Origin: a phage
Length of the DNA stretch: 64,000 nt
Strand: one strand, 5' to 3'
Sequence record: PZ445488.1
Shown here: piece by piece, positions 29,271-39,839 of the stretch
Layout: the number at the start of each line of letters is the position of its first letter
Numbering within the stretch: position 1 is the stretch's first letter
Program-made: the position numbers and the translations under genes
The notes under the pieces: generated by a model
Told to the model about the DNA's origin: nothing
The model's database searches: none
What the model saw: only the letters and a program-made list of their open reading frames with translations

Positions 29271-30435
29271 CGAAATCTTCCATTTCGTCAAGGTCGTTTT
29301 CAATATCTGCTGCAGACGGAGCATCAGAAGCTTTAACAGGAACTTTAGTTGTTGCTTTGCAATTAATAAGGTCGTTAACAGCGTCATCAACTTCTTTAAT
29401 AGAAGAGATAGCACCTAGTTTATATTTAGTTTCAATTGCATCTCGGAAAGGTTTGTGTTTAAACAACGGTCCCCAGAATTCTACACAATCAGTAGCTTTA
29501 GCACGCCACGATTTCTCTTCACGAATCATTTCACCTGTTTCTTCGTCAAGGAATTCACGAGCATACCAACCAGCTTTAGGCTTAACAACAAATCCAATTT
29601 CAGTTGCCATTTCTAACAAGCCACTGAATGGATCAATACCGCCATCAAAATTAACCGTGATTGGGAAAGTAGATTTCTCTTTAACTGTACGAGATTTTTC
29701 TGCTTTCAACGTGAAGTCATAACCGGTCAATTCTGTACCTTCTTTAACCTGACGTTTAGAGATAAAGAATACAGTGTTAGCAGAGTAAAGAATACCTGTA
29801 CCACCACCCATAATCTCTTTAGGATATAGTCCGCCGATTTCCATTGCTGTATGGTTGATTGCAACACACGGAATATCTTTAATAGTCAGATAAGGAGTCA
29901 CAATGCGGAACAGAGATTTAAGTGCCTTAGCACGAGACATATCACCTACAACTTTCTCGTTCAATGCATCTTCGGTTTCTTTCTTAGATGCAGTATTACC
30001 GATTGAATCGATAAAGATAATAACTTTATCACCGCGTTCAATAGCATCAAGCTGATTAGTCATATCGACTTTAAGTTGTTCGACAGACTGAATTGGTGTA
30101 TGAACTACGCGGTCCAAATCAACACCCATTGAACGAAAATAAGATTCTGAAGCACCAAATTCAGAATCATAGAACAAACAAATTGCATCTTTATATTTCT
30201 TCATATACGCTGCAACCATAGTTAGTCCAAACAGCGTTTTAAAGTGTTTAGAAGGAGCAGCAAAAATAGTTAAGCCTGATTGCAATCCTGCATTCAGAGA
30301 ACCACCTAGTGCGATATTCAACATCGGAATACGAGTAGGGACTTCATCACGATTATTAAACAGCTTAGACTTAGTCAAGTCTGCAGTCATTTTAGAAGTA
30401 GAAGCTTTAATCAGACGAGATTTTAAATCAGACAT
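29263..30435 (-). CDS. uvsX: UvsX recombinase (RecA-like)
   Basis: 390 aa; MSDLKSRLIKASTSK...GWYAREFLDEETGEMIREEKSWRAK matches recalled T4 UvsX over most of its length. Confidence 0.9.
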   Translation of the reverse strand: MSDLKSRLIKASTSKMTADLTKSKLFNNRDEVPTRIPMLNIALGGSLNAGLQSGLTIFAAPSKHFKTLFGLTMVAAYMKKYKDAICLFYDSEFGASESYFRSMGVDLDRVVHTPIQSVEQLKVDMTNQLDAIERGDKVIIFIDSIGNTASKKETEDALNEKVVGDMSRAKALKSLFRIVTPYLTIKDIPCVAINHTAMEIGGLYPKEIMGGGTGILYSANTVFFISKRQVKEGTELTGYDFTLKAEKSRTVKEKSTFPITVNFDGGIDPFSGLLEMATEIGFVVKPKAGWYAREFLDEETGEMIREEKSWRAKATDCVEFWGPLFKHKPFRDAIETKYKLGAISSIKEVDDAVNDLINCKATTKVPVKASDAPSAADIENDLDEMEDFDE

Positions 30436-30533
30436 TGTATTTTTCCATAGGCATCATTATATTTTACTCATGTTTAAAAGATAAGATGATTATATACTAA
30501 GGGTTATACAGCATTTAAAACTTTAAATGGCTC

Positions 30534-31082
30534 TTAACGAGCCCATTTGATGATTTCTGTAATCAAACCATTACGTTCGCTTGCATTAAATCCTATAACT
30601 TTGTTAGCACCATCATGATTAAGTAATTGATATGTTTGGATTTTGTTATGAATTGCAAACTCTTCAAAATGTGAAATGACTGTATTAAAACCGAATGAAG
30701 ACAAAGTAATAAGGTCGTCTTCAAAACTTTCAGTCATTTCGTTACGTGTTAAAATAATTGTGAACACATCATGGTTTTGGCAAAGACGAACATAATCCTG
30801 CTCATAAACATCAAGAACAGAGTCCGCATCTTGACGAATACGTCCATAAACCCAGTTACTAATATATCCACGGTCTAACAGATAAATCTTAGTAGGGTCT
30901 AAATAATTCAACATCGTTTCGAAACAGCCAACTTCATTTCGAGACTTAACATCGAAACGTCCATCAACTGTTCGTTTAGGGAAATCAATCTTTACATATC
31001 TTTCACTAATTTCCATTATGTCATTAATGAAAGTTGTTTTACCGGCATTATCCGGGCCATCTACTAAAATAATTTTAGCCAT
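30534..31082 (-). CDS. P-loop nucleotide kinase, thymidylate-kinase-like
   Basis: 182 aa; Walker A DGPDNAGKTT and DRGYIS (DRY-type) motif; start overlaps stop of the upstream gene. Confidence 0.5.
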   Translation of the reverse strand: MAKIILVDGPDNAGKTTFINDIMEISERYVKIDFPKRTVDGRFDVKSRNEVGCFETMLNYLDPTKIYLLDRGYISNWVYGRIRQDADSVLDVYEQDYVRLCQNHDVFTIILTRNEMTESFEDDLITLSSFGFNTVISHFEEFAIHNKIQTYQLLNHDGANKVIGFNASERNGLITEIIKWAR

Positions 31083-31083
31083 T

Positions 31084-31983
31084 TTATTCCTCGATTACGA
31101 CATCTTCGTATTTAGGTATATTATACGGCGAAGAAATTAAAGCGTTAAAGTAGATGAACTCACCAAGACCTGGATGGAATACTTCTTCAGGATTTTCGAA
31201 ATATTGAATCTTCGGGCGTCCTTTAAGAATTTTATAGTACTCAGTTTTAGTTGGTTTAAAAATTCGAATCAGCGCTTCTTCAGGATACTTATTTCTGTCG
31301 AAGCTATTATTTGGATCGGTTATATAAAGCGGTTGGCCTAATTGAATTGCACATTCAACCACTTGTTCAAAACGATAGCACGGGTCACTAATTCGAAATG
31401 GATGAAAAATACCATCTAGATGAATAGGAGCCAAATCACCTACAAGACGCTGCATGATGGAAGGACGTATAACTTTCTGAGTTACGATAATCTTATTACC
31501 ATCTGCACCGGCGTTAACCAGCACTTCTTTTTGACGTTCATTCAACACAGTAGTTTGAAGTGAACGATTAACCGACAACATATCGGTTTTTAAGAATTCG
31601 TCAATATAAAAACGTGGTTTATTAGGGTCTGCCGTGATATTGAAATTGAATTCTACATCAAAAGCGCCGTCATATCCAGTGATATCTGTTATTAGAAAAT
31701 CACAATCATAATAAGCAATTAATGAATCAACCACAAATTCATTTTCAGACCAGAAATATTTACGAGTGTTATACGCGTTATCTTTATACCATAATGGAAC
31801 AAACTTAAATTCCGGGAAAAGACGTTCACATTCTTTAATATCAGATGCATTACGTGGATATGTAATCACATCACCTGGATTAGCACGGTGCAAATGAAGT
31901 TGGAAGTTGCCATCCTTAAGGATAGCATACTGTCCAGTTTCATAAGACCGCATACTCAAGATTGGTACGCGGAAAATAGCCAT
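31084..31983 (-). CDS. hypothetical protein (299 aa), candidate hmC sugar transferase
   Basis: Sits where T4 carries beta-gt; its ATG overlaps the stop of gene 42 (ATGA). No catalytic motif recognised; the functional call is by position only. Confidence 0.4.
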   Translation of the reverse strand: MAIFRVPILSMRSYETGQYAILKDGNFQLHLHRANPGDVITYPRNASDIKECERLFPEFKFVPLWYKDNAYNTRKYFWSENEFVVDSLIAYYDCDFLITDITGYDGAFDVEFNFNITADPNKPRFYIDEFLKTDMLSVNRSLQTTVLNERQKEVLVNAGADGNKIIVTQKVIRPSIMQRLVGDLAPIHLDGIFHPFRISDPCYRFEQVVECAIQLGQPLYITDPNNSFDRNKYPEEALIRIFKPTKTEYYKILKGRPKIQYFENPEEVFHPGLGEFIYFNALISSPYNIPKYEDVVIEE

Positions 31984-32699
31984 TAGTCAAGGAATCCTTT
32001 AACATAATCAAAATCACGTTCAAACACATGGGCACTTACCATGGTATGAGTATAATCACCAACTTCTACACCGCATTCGTTAGCGATATAATGAAGTAAT
32101 TTTCCTTGGAGATAAAAATCCAACTGCATAACAACAGCACAGTTCTGAGAACGCATATGACAGTGGGTATAAAGCTTACCATCACGAATATAATAAGTTA
32201 CTGAGTCAGTACATGGATATTCAAGTGTTTCGTCCGAATCAAGCAAAGCCTGATCAGAACTTTCTAGAATTTGGAACACAACTCTTCGAGAGTTAGGTTT
32301 TTCTTTAAGTTCTTTTAGAAGAGTTGGTAATTGGGCCGCAATGCGAGGACCATAGAAAGTGTTGAAGTTCGCCGGCAAAACATCTGATTTTGGTTTAGAA
32401 ATAAATTTAGCGACATTAGGATATGCCTTAAACGCTTCTTCTGCGTTGGTACCACCAGAAATCATAAACTTCCAGAAGTCTTCGGCATATTCATAAGAGA
32501 TGCGGTTAATACGTGGGTCGGTCATTTTGAATGATGATGGAGTGTCAACAACTACTGTCATAGACCCAATTTCATTACAACGTCCAATACGAGAATCAGT
32601 TACGAATTCCGGGTTTTCTAAAATTTCACGATTGACTGCTTTAAATGCGGTTTGAAAATCTGCGGCTTTGATATATTTCATTGTGTTATGTTTTCCCAT
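31983..32699 (-). CDS. 42: dCMP hydroxymethylase (thymidylate-synthase fold)
   Basis: 238 aa (T4 gp42 246 aa); NSRR and YPCTD motifs at the positions of the recalled T4 gp42 blocks; synteny. Confidence 0.8.
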   Translation of the reverse strand: MGKHNTMKYIKAADFQTAFKAVNREILENPEFVTDSRIGRCNEIGSMTVVVDTPSSFKMTDPRINRISYEYAEDFWKFMISGGTNAEEAFKAYPNVAKFISKPKSDVLPANFNTFYGPRIAAQLPTLLKELKEKPNSRRVVFQILESSDQALLDSDETLEYPCTDSVTYYIRDGKLYTHCHMRSQNCAVVMQLDFYLQGKLLHYIANECGVEVGDYTHTMVSAHVFERDFDYVKGFLD

Positions 32700-32741
32700 G
32701 TTTACCTCAATACAATTTATTATATACTCAATTCATAAAGC

Positions 32742-32981
32742 TTATTTGAATTTCTTGGCAATGTTGATATAACGTAAAGCTTCAGAATCTATACTTCCAA
32801 GAACACTATGAAGAAATGCATCAGCGTAGTATTCCAATTGAACAGGTTCTTTAATCACTTTAGCCGCTTTGGTTTCAAACAGGCCCATCAGGGCCTTTTT
32901 AAGAATTTGTTCGTTAGTGTTCAGTTTCATAGTCAAAATCTCTTCGTTAAGTTTATAATTAAAACTTTTTCTAGAAATCAT
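32742..32981 (-). CDS. hypothetical protein (79 aa)
   Basis: Track ORF overlapping the stop of the 386-aa gene. Confidence 0.4.
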   Translation of the reverse strand: MISRKSFNYKLNEEILTMKLNTNEQILKKALMGLFETKAAKVIKEPVQLEYYADAFLHSVLGSIDSEALRYINIAKKFK

Positions 32982-34138
32982 TCCGGGTACCTCAAAGCGT
33001 CATCAGAGCTAGTTATATCAATAATAGATATGGAGTTTTCTGCTAACCCGTTTTTAGATAATTGACGTTTATAATATCTTTCACAATATGTACACGTCGT
33101 CCCGCAGATTTCATTAGCACAATCGAAATCTGGATGTCTGAACCACCTTTTTTCTAAAAAGCCATCTAACAAAGAGGTTTCAATATTTACTGTATGTGAA
33201 AACTCAGTTTCGTTTTCAAGAGTGAAAATAGTCTCTAAAGGCTTCCACAGTTCTAACAAATTACCTTCAAACTTTTCAGAAGCGTATGCTTCAAGAACTT
33301 TCAAAATGTAGTCTGTGCTACCTGTACGTCCTGAAACTTTGAATTGAGTGATACCAATATCATTATAAAGTTTCAAATCTTGAGGACGAACAAAACGAGT
33401 TCTCAGCCAGTTAAATGGGTCTGTATCACGAGCTTTAATACAGTGTTGCATTGGATATCCATTTAAGGATTTAGCATCATCAGCGGTAACATCAGTACTA
33501 TGGAAAATATAGCAAGAGTCACGATAGCTACAATGTGTTGTATACCCTTTACCAGCATTAGAACAGAACTCATTTACAAGAACTTCAAATATTATATTGT
33601 TCTTATTGCAAAACTCTGCTGCACGCTTCAGGAAAGAAACTGAACGGTTCTTATGAATTCCGCAGCAGACCTTTTTGATATTATATTGGTCATGCAAGTA
33701 TTTGATTTGAGTTACAGCATCGACATGTAGAATTGTTGAAACTTCAATCTCAATATCTTTATTGACTTCACGAACAATTTCCATAACAACAGGGTTAGCG
33801 ATAGTAATACGCCATACGCCTATTGACCAAAGATACTGAACATAATCCTGAATAGCTTTCTTCTTCCACTCAACTAGTTCTCTTTTTGAACCAGGATTTA
33901 TCGTGTTGAGTGTATAGTTAAAGCAAATACCTAATTCGTTACAACGTTTAACGTAATCTTCTAACATCTTTTTGTCAACGTCAGGAAGCCTAAAATCAGG
34001 TCTGGCTGCTACAAAAGCCATTTCTCTTGTAGAGCCGTATACTTCGTTTATCAAGCTATTAGGATAAGTTTTATTGAGCTCTACGATTTTATCAAGAAGA
34101 GCTAAATCAAAATTCGTTCCGATTTTAAAAGTATTCAT
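32978..34138 (-). CDS. hypothetical Cys-rich protein (386 aa), possible Fe-S / U32-like enzyme
   Basis: Cys clusters EFCSNAGKGYTTHCSYRDSCYIFHS and C-terminal CANEICGTTCTYC (Cx4Cx3Cx2C); not the radical-SAM CxxxCxxC layout; fold unassigned. Confidence 0.4.
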   Translation of the reverse strand: MNTFKIGTNFDLALLDKIVELNKTYPNSLINEVYGSTREMAFVAARPDFRLPDVDKKMLEDYVKRCNELGICFNYTLNTINPGSKRELVEWKKKAIQDYVQYLWSIGVWRITIANPVVMEIVREVNKDIEIEVSTILHVDAVTQIKYLHDQYNIKKVCCGIHKNRSVSFLKRAAEFCNKNNIIFEVLVNEFCSNAGKGYTTHCSYRDSCYIFHSTDVTADDAKSLNGYPMQHCIKARDTDPFNWLRTRFVRPQDLKLYNDIGITQFKVSGRTGSTDYILKVLEAYASEKFEGNLLELWKPLETIFTLENETEFSHTVNIETSLLDGFLEKRWFRHPDFDCANEICGTTCTYCERYYKRQLSKNGLAENSISIIDITSSDDALRYPE

Positions 34139-34195
34139 TTTTTTTGCATCTCACGTTAATTGATGCGATGGTTTTTGCAGGTCTTACTTAAATTA

Positions 34196-34597
34196 TTATA
34201 GATTAGGTTTATATGATTTAAATGTTTCGAATTCGCCTTTATTCATAAGAGCTTTGAATTCGTCAGGACGCATAGCTTTGTCGTCGATAATCCAATCATA
34301 TACTGGTTTATGTGTTAGCAAATTATGGTACTTCAAGCCAATGTTTGCCAAGTTCTGAATCAGACTTGGGAGAATGTCAATTGCTATACGACCAGGACCT
34401 ACTGACTTCATACCACGAGCCGTGTAAAGCGTTATGGTATGCCCTGCATCATACAGGGCATTAATGGCAGACACCATTTCGACGTCTGGTTTGAAGTTCA
34501 CGTAATCACGATTGTTATTCCATTCCGTGATGCAATCATCGATATCAAAACAAAGATTAAGCATGTTTTCTACATGGTGCATTAGATTCGTTCCCAT
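34196..34597 (-). CDS. HAD-like phosphatase (small)
   Basis: Ordered motifs FDIDDCIT (I), ITLYTARG (II), THKP (III), DWIIDD (IV); likely starts at Met 34582, overlapping the upstream stop. Confidence 0.45.
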   Translation of the reverse strand: MGTNLMHHVENMLNLCFDIDDCITEWNNNRDYVNFKPDVEMVSAINALYDAGHTITLYTARGMKSVGPGRIAIDILPSLIQNLANIGLKYHNLLTHKPVYDWIIDDKAMRPDEFKALMNKGEFETFKSYKPNL

Positions 34598-36270
34598 TGA
34601 TGAGTGATATCGCCACCGATTGGACGATAGGAAACACCAGTTTCTTTATCAGTTAGTACCCATTTACCAGGATTTTTTGTAATCAGAGTAGCCGTTACAG
34701 GTTCTGCTACGTCATAACTAATAGAGCCGTCTTGAAGTACACGGCCCATGTTATGTAATTGCTTAGTCAGAAGTTCCATACCTTTATAATATGCGGCCAC
34801 CGCTTTAAGTGGATTATTCTTGAAATAACCACCTAATGCAATCCAGATAATTGCTACTGCCAAATGATGATACTCATTAAACGAACTCATCTTTCCATAT
34901 TTGTAAACTAATGGATTGATGTTAATAGTCACATTACAAGTTGTTTCATCAATAGTAAACTGACCCCAGGTCGGATTAGCATTGAATTCATCATAACCTG
35001 AAACAGCATAAAGCACTTTAGCTTCATCGTACAATTTTGGCCCGTAAATCTTGGTTTCACCAAAATATCCACGAGGGTCGATAAACTTGACTTCACCATT
35101 ATCAGTAATCATAGTATTACTGAAGTTCGGGTCGCCGTGAATAACAGAGTACTGTCCCTGAGAACGGTTATGATAACGAATAAGATGTTCTAAAGCTTGT
35201 TTCAACATTGGCTTCAGACGTCCAATCTTAGTGTAGTTCACGTGTGTGATTTTACCAAATGAATCAATCAATGGCTGAATGCTTTCACAACGATCAATAA
35301 CTTTCGTATAGAACTCTTTAGTGAAATCACGGCGAACAGTTTCAGGACTTACAAAATAAGTGTCTGTGCTGAATTTCAGTGCATCTAAAATTGCATCAAC
35401 AATTTGTGGACGAGCAAGACTTGATTTGGATTTAATATATTCAAATGCCGGCTTACCTTTAATGCGTTCCATAATAAAGTGGCCGCCAGGATGATAACTT
35501 ACAATCCGTGGAACTGAATCTGATTTAACTTTCTTATACCAATTGACTTCATCTTTTTGAAGTGCAACGCCCTGTTCTGTTAAAGCAATCTTTGTTACCG
35601 TTTCTTCGCCAATTTCAACTGCATTAAAACTACGATTAAGTTCACGAACTTCATGAGCTTTTTCAAGTTTAGGCATATCACCTAAATCAATTAGATTCAT
35701 AAGCTCTGATTTATTGAATGCACTACCGTAAAGGAATTCTACGAAATCACGTCCTTTGCAGTATTCGTGAATTTCCTCATCAGTAGAACCCATGTAGAAT
35801 TCCCAGTCTTTGAACTGATAAATTCCTACAACATTACCACCTGTTGAACCTACGTTAGTGATATTTTCACCATCGAAATTATATCGACATTCATCACCCT
35901 TAACATAGATTGCGTTAACATTCCAAGACCATGAACCAAAGTCAGGAATAATATCACACCAGTTAACAATTACGTTATGGCCATCTAAATCTTTGTATAA
36001 TTTAGCAAGAGCATAAGCAGAACCATACGCTTCATCAACTGTACGAATAGTCACATTGAACCCTTCTTGCTCGCAATAAGCTCGAACAGTTTCAGCAAAT
36101 TTTGAATGAACTACTACAATAATTTCATCTGCGCCAAGGTCAGAATAAATTGTATACAAATTGCTCAGAATAGTGTCTTGTTTATAGTTAACAAGCACCT
36201 TAGGAATATGGTGCGTTATTGGATACAAACGAGTTGCCAGTCCAGCACCAAGAATAACAGCTTTTTTCAT
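34582..36270 (-). CDS. bifunctional sugar-1-phosphate nucleotidyltransferase (RmlA/GlmU-like) + anomeric sugar kinase (APH/choline-kinase fold)
   Basis: 562 aa; N-terminus AVILGAGLATRLYPIT (G-x-G-T-R-L-x-P-x-T); C-terminal half has HGDPNFSN (Brenner HGDxxxxN) and FIDPRG (DFG-like). Confidence 0.7.
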   Translation of the reverse strand: MKKAVILGAGLATRLYPITHHIPKVLVNYKQDTILSNLYTIYSDLGADEIIVVVHSKFAETVRAYCEQEGFNVTIRTVDEAYGSAYALAKLYKDLDGHNVIVNWCDIIPDFGSWSWNVNAIYVKGDECRYNFDGENITNVGSTGGNVVGIYQFKDWEFYMGSTDEEIHEYCKGRDFVEFLYGSAFNKSELMNLIDLGDMPKLEKAHEVRELNRSFNAVEIGEETVTKIALTEQGVALQKDEVNWYKKVKSDSVPRIVSYHPGGHFIMERIKGKPAFEYIKSKSSLARPQIVDAILDALKFSTDTYFVSPETVRRDFTKEFYTKVIDRCESIQPLIDSFGKITHVNYTKIGRLKPMLKQALEHLIRYHNRSQGQYSVIHGDPNFSNTMITDNGEVKFIDPRGYFGETKIYGPKLYDEAKVLYAVSGYDEFNANPTWGQFTIDETTCNVTININPLVYKYGKMSSFNEYHHLAVAIIWIALGGYFKNNPLKAVAAYYKGMELLTKQLHNMGRVLQDGSISYDVAEPVTATLITKNPGKWVLTDKETGVSYRPIGGDITHQWERI

Positions 36271-36308
36271 GTTGTGGTCCTCATTGGTAAGTAGGTGTAT
36301 TGTACACT

Positions 36309-36455
36309 ATTCTAGTTAAAGCATTCATACTTTGCTTGTAGTCCAATCATAATCCATCCGATTATAAGAGTCGGAATCATTACTGGAGCCGTTAAGCTCC
36401 AGTAGATAGTCATGACAAGCATCAATAGTAAAAGTCCTATTGTTATTGCTTTCAT
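36309..36455 (-). CDS. small membrane peptide (48 aa)
   Basis: Hand-translated MKAITIGLLLLMLVMTIYWSLTAPVMIPTLIIGWIM...; ATG overlaps the TGA of the isomerase gene. Confidence 0.3.
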
Positions 36456-37087
36456 TGTTCGCCTCGTAACATGGCACCTAGTGCACCACCAGGGTGGAAC
36501 TTAAGGAAGTCATTAGAGGTAAATCCGCGTTCAGACGAAAGGTTGATAGCGAACGTATCGATAAGCGCTAACAACAATGTAGTGGACATTGTAGGAGCCA
36601 GAGAATTCTCATCAACCTCTACCGCGATACCGGTACAGAATGTATAATCAAAAAGAGCTTCGTATTCTTGTGGAATGTCCGGGTTACAATGCAACAGAAT
36701 CTGTTTGACATTTGGACGAATCATTTTAAGATGCTTAGCCACGCCTATCATTTCTTCAGTCTTACCAGAACGACTAATATGAATCAACACATCATTAGGC
36801 GCAATGAATCCTGCATCACCGTGAGAATAATGCCCAGTGTTCAAGTACATACTCGGGATACCGAGCGAAGCAAATGTCTCAGAAGCTTTAGTTGCAATAT
36901 TAGCATTCTTACCAACACCTGTAATAATTACTCGGCTTTCATAATTACTAAGTCCAGGGCGTCGAAGAGTTTCTAGAATAGCATTATAACGAGCAGGGTT
37001 TTGACTAATTACTTTGGCCATAGCGGCCAAAGAAGAAGCTTGTTTTATGATTGCGTCAATAGCGATAGTAATAGGAGTAGTTTTCAT
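36452..37087 (-). CDS. SIS-domain sugar-phosphate isomerase, KdsD/GutQ-like arabinose-5-phosphate isomerase (no CBS domains)
   Basis: 211 aa; TGVGKNANIATKASETFASLGIPS...HGDAGF...ISRSGKTEE...LAPTMSTT...RGFT.NDF..HPGGALG aligns block-for-block with recalled E. coli KdsD SIS domain. Confidence 0.7.
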   Translation of the reverse strand: MKTTPITIAIDAIIKQASSLAAMAKVISQNPARYNAILETLRRPGLSNYESRVIITGVGKNANIATKASETFASLGIPSMYLNTGHYSHGDAGFIAPNDVLIHISRSGKTEEMIGVAKHLKMIRPNVKQILLHCNPDIPQEYEALFDYTFCTGIAVEVDENSLAPTMSTTLLLALIDTFAINLSSERGFTSNDFLKFHPGGALGAMLRGEQ

Positions 37088-37127
37088 ATTTCTCTCATTT
37101 AATTAGTTTACCGTCCATGACATTATA

Positions 37128-39839
37128 TCAAAAATCGAACATATCGAACAGAGATGCTTTCTTCTCGTAATCGAGTTTCGCTGCTGATGTGAATCCTTCA
37201 AGTGGTTTAATAAATGTCTTCTCAAGGAGAACAGTGTAGTCCATCCAATGAAGTACGTCGTCTTTAATTAAATCTGTGATTTCAGTACCAGAAGGCCATG
37301 CGATACATTTATCACCGAATGGGTTTCCATCACGTAAAGGCAGAACGTATACCTTTTCGCCTTCTACAACTTGTGGAGCATCAATATTACCTTTGATAGC
37401 TCTGTTATATGTCAGAATTCCACGAATATGGAACGGGCATTTAGGACCAGGGAATCCACCAACGTCATATTTAGCAATGTTATTCGCAGAAGATACCGAC
37501 GCGATGCTAATATAATTCAATTGACGGAATTCTTTTTCAAACTCTTTAAAATATTCTTGTAATGATTCTTCACCTTCTTGAAGCATACGACGAATACATT
37601 CTTTAAGAGCTTTCTGTACTGCTTTAGGGGTCGAAGATTTCTGTGTTTCGAGACCCATGATTTTGAGTTTAGGCTCAGCGTATCTGGTTCCTTCCATATC
37701 CCACACGTTTAATGCATAACGTTTCTTACCAGTCCAGAATCCACCAATACCTTTAGAACCGAGTGGAGGACCAGCAATAGCTTCTCGGTCCATGAACATC
37801 AAATGTTGCTTATTATTCATGTATTCACACATTTCACGGAAACCTCTATCAATAGCCGGTTCCATACGTTCACGAGCAAACTTATCTAAGAAGTCTACCC
37901 AATGGTTGGTATCACGGAATTTAGATTCACCAACCTTATCGATAATTTTATCAGCAGATACGTAAATAGAGTCTGTATCACCATAAAGAACGAAAGCTTC
38001 ACCTTCTGTACCACAAACTTCATTCAGATATTCATTAACTTTACGTTCAATCCACTGTAAAGCCATTTGCCCGAATGTTGTGATTGCAGTAGCATTACGC
38101 AAATCATAATAACGGAACCAAACGTTACCAAGTGCACCATAAAGCGAGTTGATGAGCAATTTACGGTTAATTTGTGCAGTCATACCTGCAACTTCAGTAC
38201 GTTGAGCTCTAAACAACATTTCATTAAGAGATTTAGCAGACAACTTTTTAATCTTTTCTTTAATCTCGTCAGTGAAGTCGAAACGATAATCAACATCTAA
38301 TGGTTCGTCAACAGAAAGATTAGGATTATGTAACGCCTCTTTAATTATTTCACCATTACGTTGAGCCGCAAGCATATAACCTTTATGTTCTTTACGTTGA
38401 TTAAAGACCTTAGTGATTTCAGTTGGAACTACACCATCACGGTCTTTATAATACATCATGCCGTTAGGAGAGCAACTGTACACATCTGAAGGACGTTCAG
38501 CGATTGCGTTAATATAATCATGCAATGGAGCTACTTTAAACGTTCCTGCTATTGTTTCTGGGCTAATATTCACTTGGCGAATAATACTTGGATACAGAGA
38601 TGTAAGGTCGAAACTCATTACATATTTGTATCGATTTGGAATAGGTTCCTTAACAAAAGCGCCAGGATAAGGTTGAACCGGGTGAGAACGACCTTGTGGA
38701 ATCACCTTGTTCTGCTCTTTAAGGCTATTAAAAATAATAGCATCCCATGTTTTAATTGGGCTGAACACAGATTGAATCTGTATCTTAGCATAATAACCCA
38801 TGTCCAAACTCAAGTTGATGAACTGGCGCTTAGCATCAATTTGCAATACACGATACACGTCGATAATGTTATAAGAAATATATCGTTGGTGATTGCTTTC
38901 ACGAAGCTTAGAAATAGGGCCGTCATATTTCAGTTTACCGACATTCAATTCAAATTCTGAAATGTAATCCAGAGAATACGACGGTTGGTTTGTGAAAGAG
39001 AATTTTTTGTAAAGGTCAATGTAATCAAGAACAGAAATACCGAACAATGTAATGATTTCACGAGAACCATACATGTTTTCGATAACTTTAACACGAGTTT
39101 TACGATGTGGTGATAAACGTTTCGCAGTAGATTCGCCAAAAATATTCTTGATTCGGTTATACACATATGGAATATCAAATGACTCAACGTTCCATCCGGT
39201 TAAAATGACAGGAGTTTTCTGTTGCCAGAAGTTGAGATATTCCATCAACAATTCTTTTTCGTTATCGAACGGCATATAAATGATTTTATCGATAATTTCG
39301 GATGGAACTTCATCACCACCTTGTTCTTGAAGCTTAGCCGCAATTTCGATAGACCATTCTTCTACATTACCATATGGAGAATTCAAAAGGTCGAATACGT
39401 AGAACCTGTCGTCAATTGAGTCATAATGGGTGATAGCATCAATCGGATGTTTTGCTTGTGACGGCTCAGGGAACCCATCCGGAGATGTTACTTCGATATC
39501 GAAGTTAGCCACACGAATTTTTGTATGGTCGTATTTGATTTCATAGTTATAAGTGTCAGACAAATACGACAATTTGAAATCGTCCATACCTAATGCTTCA
39601 AGACCGATATCTTCCATGCGTTTAATCCATTGGGAGGCATCACGCATATTAGCGAACAACTTACGAGTACACGGCTTACCGTAGATATCGAAATATTTCG
39701 TAGCCTGACTTTCTGGACAATGAGCAAACAATGATGGTTTATATTCTACTTCACGAGTACGTTCACGGCCATTAGAATCGATGTAACGTTCAAAAATTGA
39801 ATCACCAATCTGTTCAACCGTTAAGTAAAATTCTTTCAT
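37128..39839 (-). CDS. 43: DNA polymerase (family B) with 3'-5' exonuclease
   Basis: 903 aa (T4 gp43 898 aa); YGDTDS polymerase motif C and SLYPS motif A; uninterrupted. Confidence 0.9.
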   Translation of the reverse strand: MKEFYLTVEQIGDSIFERYIDSNGRERTREVEYKPSLFAHCPESQATKYFDIYGKPCTRKLFANMRDASQWIKRMEDIGLEALGMDDFKLSYLSDTYNYEIKYDHTKIRVANFDIEVTSPDGFPEPSQAKHPIDAITHYDSIDDRFYVFDLLNSPYGNVEEWSIEIAAKLQEQGGDEVPSEIIDKIIYMPFDNEKELLMEYLNFWQQKTPVILTGWNVESFDIPYVYNRIKNIFGESTAKRLSPHRKTRVKVIENMYGSREIITLFGISVLDYIDLYKKFSFTNQPSYSLDYISEFELNVGKLKYDGPISKLRESNHQRYISYNIIDVYRVLQIDAKRQFINLSLDMGYYAKIQIQSVFSPIKTWDAIIFNSLKEQNKVIPQGRSHPVQPYPGAFVKEPIPNRYKYVMSFDLTSLYPSIIRQVNISPETIAGTFKVAPLHDYINAIAERPSDVYSCSPNGMMYYKDRDGVVPTEITKVFNQRKEHKGYMLAAQRNGEIIKEALHNPNLSVDEPLDVDYRFDFTDEIKEKIKKLSAKSLNEMLFRAQRTEVAGMTAQINRKLLINSLYGALGNVWFRYYDLRNATAITTFGQMALQWIERKVNEYLNEVCGTEGEAFVLYGDTDSIYVSADKIIDKVGESKFRDTNHWVDFLDKFARERMEPAIDRGFREMCEYMNNKQHLMFMDREAIAGPPLGSKGIGGFWTGKKRYALNVWDMEGTRYAEPKLKIMGLETQKSSTPKAVQKALKECIRRMLQEGEESLQEYFKEFEKEFRQLNYISIASVSSANNIAKYDVGGFPGPKCPFHIRGILTYNRAIKGNIDAPQVVEGEKVYVLPLRDGNPFGDKCIAWPSGTEITDLIKDDVLHWMDYTVLLEKTFIKPLEGFTSAAKLDYEKKASLFDMFDF

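Follow-up and report, generated by a model that had tools for sequence, protein, structure and literature searches.

The 64,000-nucleotide stretch of phage DNA analysed here (sequence record PZ445488.1; the whole stretch is called the window below) comes from an RB69-like T-even phage of the genus Mosigvirus, and its positions 30400-37200 are 97% identical to RB69 and relatives. A DNA-modification gene cluster is found there, flanked by uvsX and an RB69-type DNA polymerase gene. Within it, at 32978..34138 on the minus strand, lies an open reading frame (ORF), complete from ATG to stop, that encodes a 386-residue protein. This is the ortholog of RB69 gp50 (RB69p050), whose record name is 'peptidase'. 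The present analysis suggests that gp50 is an iron-sulfur (Fe-S) enzyme that may hydroxylate a DNA precursor without molecular oxygen. The following features were located in the gene:

32978..34138, minus strand: gp50, U32-family Fe-S protein of 386 aa, candidate O2-independent pyrimidine C5 hydroxylase
33281..33859, minus strand: region of gp50 matching Pfam Peptidase_U32 (aa 94-286), within the TIM-barrel body (~aa 1-290)
33440..33565, minus strand: core Cys set of gp50, C192-x10-C203-x5-C209-x23-C233, probable [4Fe-4S] site
33083..33121, minus strand: C-terminal cluster of gp50, C340-x4-C345-x3-C349-x2-C352, probable second metal or Fe-S site
32981..33046, minus strand: acidic C-terminal tail of gp50, aa 365-386, low-confidence in the model and present in Straboviridae versions only

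More than 130 Mosigvirus records carry the protein at 99-100% identity, and in other genera the identity is 83-89%; this conservation shows that the gene is real. In Escherichia phage OLB35, another Mosigvirus, the U32 gene is divided into pieces of 269 and 108 aa (BFVD A0A3G3MCS7 and A0A3G3MCT7), which reflects either a frameshift or a sequencing error. The tail of the Straboviridae proteins is acidic and apparently disordered (...SSDDALRYPE) and is absent from metagenomic homologs of ~360 aa. It could, speculatively, dock to the T4-type dNTP-synthesis/replication complex. A scan for promoters and terminators performed no better than on shuffled sequence.

By its sequence, gp50 is a member of the U32 family of iron-sulfur hydroxylases. 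Residues 94-286 match Pfam PF01136 with 42.2 bits against a cut-off of 22.4 (E 7.3e-11), and a fold comparison gave the TIM barrel of Mk0906 (PDB 5d88) as the predicted fold. This bears out the first-pass annotation, which had seen a likeness to peptidase-U32-type enzymes. Mk0906 is the only solved U32 structure. It has no assigned function and is 14% identical to gp50, which differs from it by an extra C-terminal segment of ~100 residues with four Cys. A viral structure library added nothing. When PDB chains were searched by sequence, neither the single protein nor the family profile returned a U32 entry. The NCBIfam models gave a weak UbiU match only (18.5 bits against a cut-off of 440). Because there is no PDB sequence match and just a trace of UbiU signal, gp50 is regarded as a separate branch of U32. 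No more than 1,675 representative proteins were collected in an exhaustive profile search at E ≤ 1e-3, and 464 at E ≤ 1e-30.

The historical family name, as used in most database records, is the only ground for reading gp50 as a collagenase-type (PrtC) protease. The U32 'peptidases' have no known catalytic mechanism, their characterised members are hydroxylation factors, and the genes around gp50 are entirely concerned with nucleotide and DNA modification. A protease is barely credible here.

The cysteines of gp50 are conspicuous, as the first-pass annotation had pointed out. The protein has 13 Cys (3.4%). On the minus strand of the window, 68 ORFs reach 100 aa or more; their value is 1.27%, and gp50 ranks third highest. 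The stretch EFCSNAGKGYTTHCSYRDSC occupies residues 190-209 (nt 33512-33571), and the C-terminal Cx4Cx3Cx2C cluster, C340-x4-C345-x3-C349-x2-C352 (CANEICGTTCTYC), is located at nt 33083-33121 near the C-terminus; both had been singled out in that annotation. When 35 homologs with identities as low as 46% were aligned, 10 of the 13 Cys proved invariant (C158, C177, C192, C203, C209, C233, C340, C345, C349 and C352), against 64 invariant columns among all 386, an enrichment with a hypergeometric P of 1.6e-6. Among 128 more distant full-length representatives, C192 is found in 126 and C233 in all, and the four C-terminal Cys are nearly universal. C203 and C209 are kept in ~60% of these proteins and are jointly replaced by G/H in one sub-branch. 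In the profile alignment, C203 and C209 coincide with the CX6C of RlhA, whose two Cys, C169 and C176, are essential. The C-terminal cluster could not be aligned to C572/C580/C611/C614 of RlhA. C192, C203, C209 and C233 are probably a [4Fe-4S] site, and C340-C352 is probably a second metal or Fe-S site.

The spacing C345-x3-C349-x2-C352, with a Tyr before the last Cys, matches the CX3CX2C motif of radical S-adenosylmethionine (SAM) enzymes. Assignment to the radical SAM enzymes was rejected, since PF04055 gave no match, the motif stands after the barrel at the C-terminus, and a fourth Cys (C340) is present. The first-pass annotation had likewise held the layout not to be a canonical radical SAM one.

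The family profile was compared with three of the four E. coli U32 paralogs, namely RlhA, TrhP and UbiU, with UbiV left out. RlhA was the best match (probability 78%, E 1.8e-5, 203 columns), followed by TrhP with 9% and UbiU with 5% (4.6%, hhalign). gp50 also lacks the equivalog score of UbiU/UbiV, two U32 paralogs that form a heterodimer with UbiT, and no second U32 gene was found in the 64-kb window. RNA is the substrate of every nucleic-acid U32 enzyme characterised so far, and among the E. coli paralogs RlhA stands nearest, which would suit an enzyme that hydroxylates RNA (host or phage tRNA at U34, or rRNA at C2501) and tunes translation in infection like TrhP or RlhA. However, E. coli already has both of these enzymes. 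In score, gp50 comes nowhere near any NCBIfam U32 equivalog, and it has none of their C-terminal domains; its 386 residues carry PF01136 alone, not the architecture of RlhA (U32 plus DUF3656, ~650 aa). In addition, the gene always lies within DNA-modification or deoxynucleotide clusters. An RNA substrate is very improbable on these grounds.

The neighbouring genes belong to a pathway that has been described in RB69. They are as follows:

30534..31082, minus strand: gp45, thymidylate-kinase-like nucleotide kinase
31084..31983, minus strand: DNA arabinosyltransferase 1, ortholog of RB69 gp46:47, with homologs that accompany U32 in divergent viruses
31983..32699, minus strand: ortholog of gp48 (98.7% identical to RB69), ThyA-like 5-hydroxy-dCMP synthase (Pfam Thymidylat_synt; experiments in PMC13326640)
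32742..32981, minus strand: gp49, helical protein of 79 aa whose start overlaps the U32 stop (ATGA)
34196..34597, minus strand: gp51, HAD phosphatase, AfhF-like, of the UDP-arabinose branch
34582..36270, minus strand: gp52:53, bifunctional nucleotidyltransferase/kinase, AfhE-like
36452..37087, minus strand: gp55, SIS-domain arabinose-5-phosphate isomerase

The arabinosyltransferase (31084-31983) and nucleotidyltransferase/kinase (34582-36270) genes are intact in the window. The RB69 reference splits them into ORF046c/047c and ORF052c/053c, and the intact ORFs agree with the published statement that these splits are sequencing errors. Between the nucleotidyltransferase/kinase and SIS genes lies a strongly hydrophobic ORF of 47 aa (36312-36455, minus strand). 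Its RB69 counterpart is ORF054c, whose record notes similarity to the T4 42-imm intercistronic region.

RB69 DNA contains arabinosyl-5-hydroxycytosine and not arabinosyl-5-hydroxymethylcytosine (Lee et al., NAR 2026, PMC13326640). In the same study, gp48 was found to bind flavin and to make 5-hydroxy-dCMP, and 18O2 labelling showed that the oxygen comes from O2. UDP-arabinofuranose is supplied by gp55, gp52:53 and gp51, and the transferases are gp46:47 and gp3 (PMC13326640). The first-pass annotation had called the neighbour of gp50 'gene 42'. This identity falls, because the gene is the published flavin- and O2-dependent 5-hydroxy-dCMP synthase gp48 and RB69 carries 5-hydroxycytosine (5hoC); the likeness to U32-type enzymes that the annotation had seen stood.

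A role for gp50 in the sugar branch, as a reductase, epimerase or other enzyme that makes or tailors NDP-arabinose, is suggested by two labels: 'sugar or heterocycle reductase' in the published table and 'putative enzyme involved in UDP-arabinose biosynthesis' in BASEL. The gene also stands between the phosphatase and the base-modifying genes, and the TIM barrel is common to many sugar enzymes. However, the route from ribulose 5-phosphate to UDP-arabinofuranose is already complete with the isomerase, the kinase/nucleotidyltransferase and the phosphatase. Tri-arabinosyl-5hoC is also made by the Acinetobacter phage DLP3, whose cluster lacks U32 (PMC13326640). Furthermore, U32 genes also occur in clusters where other sugar genes (GLF, TAGT) replace those for arabinose, and the linkage to chorismate mutase and DAHP synthase described below has no rationale in sugar chemistry. 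Of the role in nucleotide or sugar modification that the first-pass annotation had proposed, the sugar part is very unlikely. The nucleotide part is retained, as the link to 5hoC synthesis for which a probability is given below.

In IMG/VR, 32 divergent viral loci were examined, with U32 proteins 40-55% identical to gp50 and contigs of up to 295 kb. A DNA glycosyltransferase of the gp46:47 type was found within ~10 kb of the U32 gene in 23 of them, and directly adjacent in six. The nine loci without it are mostly short contigs or have the U32 gene at the contig end. The nucleotidyltransferase/kinase is present in 16 loci, the SIS gene in 9 and the thymidylate-kinase-like (TMK-like) kinase in 15. 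A ThyA-like gene was found near U32 in one locus only, as a weak 24% match, and the remaining 31 have none within that distance. The same picture was obtained from metagenome loci (including L015-L017 in our numbering), where genes for dCMP deaminase, dUTPase/DCD, UDG, ThyX, TET-associated glycosyltransferase and UDP-galactopyranose mutase are found near U32. Within this ~10 kb, the U32 gene is the only candidate for a hydroxylase in the divergent viral loci. Across genera, U32 is also the most conserved protein of the cluster (83-89% identity, against 74-82% for gp48 and 51-72% for the glycosyltransferase).

Cellular genomes and metagenome-assembled genomes provided 11 further U32 loci, all from anaerobic or anoxic-habitat taxa (Erysipelotrichales, Oscillospiraceae, Romboutsia, Tannerella, Phocaeicola, Gastranaerophilaceae, Woesearchaeota and similar). 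The same glycosyltransferase accompanies U32 in five of these, and a ThyA-like gene is nearby in none.

These counts bear on the suggestion that gp50 is no hydroxylase itself and helps gp48 instead, either as an Fe-S redox partner delivering electrons to its flavin or in some other way. FMN is loosely bound by gp48, which depends on a supply of reducing equivalents (PMC13326640), and in Straboviridae the gp48 and U32 genes always co-occur, 1-3 genes apart. However, gp48 together with a dNMP kinase is active in E. coli without gp50 (PMC13326640), and in almost all of the divergent viral loci and all of the cellular ones U32 has no ThyA-like gene nearby. A redox partner of gp48 is therefore highly improbable.

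Another possibility is that the U32 hydroxylase gp50 modifies the polymer, with cytosine in already replicated DNA as its substrate in place of dCMP. RlhA, the nearest characterised relative, acts on a polynucleotide, and the gp50 gene adjoins those for DNA glycosyltransferases, which are enzymes acting on DNA. Nevertheless, in T-even-type phages dCTP is destroyed by dCTPase (PMC13326640, Table 1), which under anoxia would leave no cytosine nucleotide to polymerise. The U32 gene recurs with genes for nucleotide kinases, dCMP deaminase, dUTPase/DCD and NT5C/dNK, and gp50 lacks the additional RNA-binding-type domain of RlhA (DUF3656). Hydroxylation at the DNA level is considered unlikely.

A second nucleotide-centred context also recurs, with the order GP88, methyltransferase (fused to a guanylate kinase in L075), a protein of ~265 aa, and U32 (L075:3044-7137, Phocaeicola faecalis; L004:5135-9098). 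Beyond this module, L004 carries NT5C, an NMN transporter, a deoxynucleoside kinase, a radical SAM/SPASM protein, a second and distant U32 (22% identity) and a nucleoside 2-deoxyribosyltransferase. The module may make a 5-hydroxy- or 5-methoxy-pyrimidine nucleotide.

Chorismate mutase (CM) produces prephenate, and genes for an AroQ-type CM adjoin or neighbour the U32 gene in Enterobacter phage Entb_45, Yersinia phage TG1, Serratia phage X20 and Shewanella phage Thanatos-2. The CM gene is directly beside U32 in Kanagawa-, Teguna- and Winklervirus and in Shewanella phage Thanatos, where the pair has been relocated together to another part of the cluster. The phage CM scores above the Pfam CM_2 threshold, its family profile matches the solved CM 1ybz (E 1.8e-17), and its catalytic columns Arg/Arg/Lys/Glu/Ser/Gln are invariant. 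This CM was found in 54 phage records, all of Straboviridae, and informative annotations under or beside the match are always thymidylate synthase and/or peptidase. Among Straboviridae U32 loci from IMG/VR, 13 of 15 have the CM gene.

Uncultivated viruses also carry DAHP synthase genes. In three of them, a DAHP synthase fused to CM as its C-terminal domain is encoded near U32 (L043:8411-9433, L046:7302-8357 and L047:8332-9387), in the order glycosyltransferase, SIS, nucleotidyltransferase/kinase, TMK-like kinase, DAHP synthase-CM fusion, HAD, U32. In other loci DAHP synthase alone is beside U32, e.g., L015:8145-8891. The NCBIfam scores of these genes favour DAHP synthase over KDO8P synthase. 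Judged from these matches, the viral DAHP synthase and fusion genes are auxiliary genes for the first and the branch-point steps of the shikimate pathway. The U32 enzymes RlhA, TrhP and UbiU/V all require prephenate, and prephenate is the oxygen donor for UbiU/V (PMC10990095). By our own estimate, a 168-kb genome of ~37% G+C contains ~62,000 cytosines, which corresponds to millions of hydroxylations per burst. With so many cytosines per genome, the demand for prephenate would be large.

gp49, whose gene lies immediately downstream of U32, was suspected to be a CM since a gene of the same size at that position in Entb_45 is one. This was rejected: gp49 has no BLAST similarity to CM and no Pfam match even at E 10, hhalign to the phage CM profile gave a probability of 0.1%, and in Yersinia phage TG1 a gp49 homolog and a CM are encoded by separate genes. 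gp49 consists of three helices with invariant Y51, D54-A-F56, H58-S59, R70 and N73. It accompanies U32 in Mosigvirus, Tegunavirus, Pectobacterium phage PM2 and one IMG/VR phage, and may be a partner of the U32 enzyme. No resemblance to any solved protein was found for it (the AF2 model, with a pLDDT of 66, was too poor for a fold search).

The occurrence of the two genes was also compared with respect to oxygen. The U32 gene is carried by 222 phage records, with identities of at least 80%, and the named hosts are all Enterobacterales or Shewanella. These are facultative anaerobes. Homologs of gp48 are found in 374 records. Of these, 57 belong to Acinetobacter phages and 20 to Rhizobium phages; neither host is among those named for U32, and gp48 is thereby seen in phages of strict aerobes from which U32 is missing. 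In the Acinetobacter cluster that was inspected, the phosphatase gene is followed directly by the ThyA-like gene, with no U32 between them.

Taken together, we consider gp50 to be an O2-independent, prephenate-using C5-hydroxylase of dCMP and the anaerobic counterpart of gp48, with a probability of about 0.6. The sequences themselves show the family and fold, the conserved Cys, the gene linkages and the spread across hosts; that gp50 binds Fe-S, takes its oxygen from prephenate, acts on dCMP and serves under anoxia is what we infer from sequence and gene context. gp50 would bind one or two Fe-S clusters via C192/C203/C209/C233 and C340-C352, oxidise the pyrimidine ring of dCMP and capture the hydroxyl released from prephenate, with phenylpyruvate and CO2 as by-products. 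The product, 5-hydroxy-dCMP, most likely from dCMP, would be made without O2. The routes through gp48 and gp50 would then converge, with phosphorylation by kinases, incorporation by the polymerase and arabinosylation by gp46:47 and gp3. In this way gp50 may let the phage protect its DNA where oxygen is absent, as in the gut.

Several observations weigh against this assignment. We know of no U32 enzyme that has so far been reconstituted in vitro. The spacing C192x10C203x5C209x23C233 differs from the canonical U32 motif CX6CX15CX3/4C, of which the CX3/4C pair is missing. UbiU (CX6CX16CX38C) and UbiV also depart from this motif (PMC6747719). In the study of the RB69 pathway, gp50 appears as a table entry only, under its reductase label and without discussion (PMC13326640). 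A CM gene is absent from the whole 64-kb window, as it is from Mosigviruses in general, which would depend on PheA/TyrA of the host. Marfavirus EI (Klebsiella phage EI, L008) has U32 with neither CM nor gp49. Conversely, gp48 occurs without U32 in ~40 records of E. coli phages, among them the Dhakavirus examined, which means that the U32 gene is not obligatory in an enterobacterial host. Finally, the contrast between aerobes and anaerobes rests on few independent lineages, and ThyA-like genes were looked for only within ~10 kb of U32. The Dhakavirus examined, Escherichia phage UGJNEcP4 (L011), has the ThyA-like hydroxylase and neither U32 nor CM. This phage and Marfavirus EI are natural controls for the oxygen hypothesis.

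A wider reading can be proposed, which we rate at somewhat short of an even chance. The discrete U32 subfamily (~1,700 representative proteins) would be the main and ancestral route to 5-hydroxypyrimidine deoxynucleotides for glycosylated DNA in viruses of anaerobes, with prephenate as the stoichiometric oxygen donor. CM and DAHP synthase would re-route the shikimate pathway of the host, and enterobacterial T-even-like phages would be the ones that keep both hydroxylases and can thereby operate at any oxygen level.

The gene, its U32 annotation and the chemistry of the family on RNA and quinones are already known. In the study of the RB69 pathway, the RlhA and tRNA 5-hydroxyuridine (ho5U) papers are cited as unrelated routes of pyrimidine hydroxylation, and the kinship of gp50 to that family is unremarked (PMC13326640). 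A virus-encoded U32 enzyme that acts on a DNA precursor and is coupled to viral shikimate-pathway genes would be new, being undescribed in the literature searched. Nothing was found there that ties phage U32, CM or prephenate to 5hoC DNA; He et al. 2026 (Nat Chem Biol) and Mahler et al. 2025 (Cell Host Microbe) were outside that literature and may address gp50. If the assignment of gp50 is correct, it closes a gap in the 5hoC pathway, where the only known hydroxylase needs O2 while the phages replace all cytosine and their hosts are gut bacteria. It would also carry U32/prephenate hydroxylation beyond RNA and quinones, into DNA precursors and viruses, and explain why phages carry CM and DAHP synthase genes. 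The chemistry of U32 is unsolved because the substrates (ribosome precursors, tRNA, polyprenyl phenols) have blocked assays in vitro. With a soluble mononucleotide as substrate and both Cys sets on a single polypeptide, gp50 would be the first U32 hydroxylase open to reconstitution in vitro. Phages with and without the gene (Mosigvirus and Dhakavirus) should then differ under anoxia in DNA modification, and hence in sensitivity to restriction, which is relevant to phage therapy and defence studies.

Among known systems, the closest to gp50 is RlhA (YdcP), the E. coli synthase of 5-hydroxycytidine-2501 in 23S rRNA, which needs Fe-S biogenesis (the isc genes) and prephenate and has essential C-terminal Cys (Kimura 2017, PMC5727448). 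The two share the U32 domain, with RlhA as the best profile match of the three paralogs compared, and each also has conserved Cys towards its C-terminus, in clusters that could not be aligned with one another. The chemistry of RlhA, at C5 of cytosine, is that proposed for gp50. RlhA differs in its 653 aa, its DUF3656 domain, its canonical CX6CX15CX3C and its substrate, a pre-50S particle. gp50 for its part has a different Cys spacing, belongs to a deoxynucleotide and DNA-glycosylation cluster, and remains far below the thresholds of the RlhA-type models.

The pairing of gp50 with gp48 has precedents in bacteria. A dual pathway to ho5U34 in tRNA, with TrhO as the O2-dependent and TrhP as the U32/prephenate-dependent enzyme, was reportedly described by Sakai et al. 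in 2019. In ubiquinone synthesis, the O2-independent U32/prephenate route of UbiU-UbiV and the O2-dependent route of UbiI/H/F lead to the same product (PMC6747719, PMC10990095), and the same logic is proposed for gp50 and gp48. Dual routes of this kind allow a pathway to run over the whole range of oxygen. UbiU and UbiV, each a U32 protein with one cluster, form a heterodimer, whereas gp50 is a single protein with two Cys sets. Unlike the Trh and Ubi pairs, gp50 and gp48 are virus-encoded, the O2-dependent partner is a flavoenzyme of the ThyA fold, and their proposed common product is a DNA precursor, required in stoichiometric amount for all cytosines of the genome. The ThyA-like synthases (RB69 gp48, DLP3 gp80 and the HY126 homolog) make the product that is also proposed for gp50, and gp48 is encoded in the same cluster, two genes away. 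They differ from gp50 in their unrelated fold, in the use of flavin and O2, and in an activity that has been shown experimentally.

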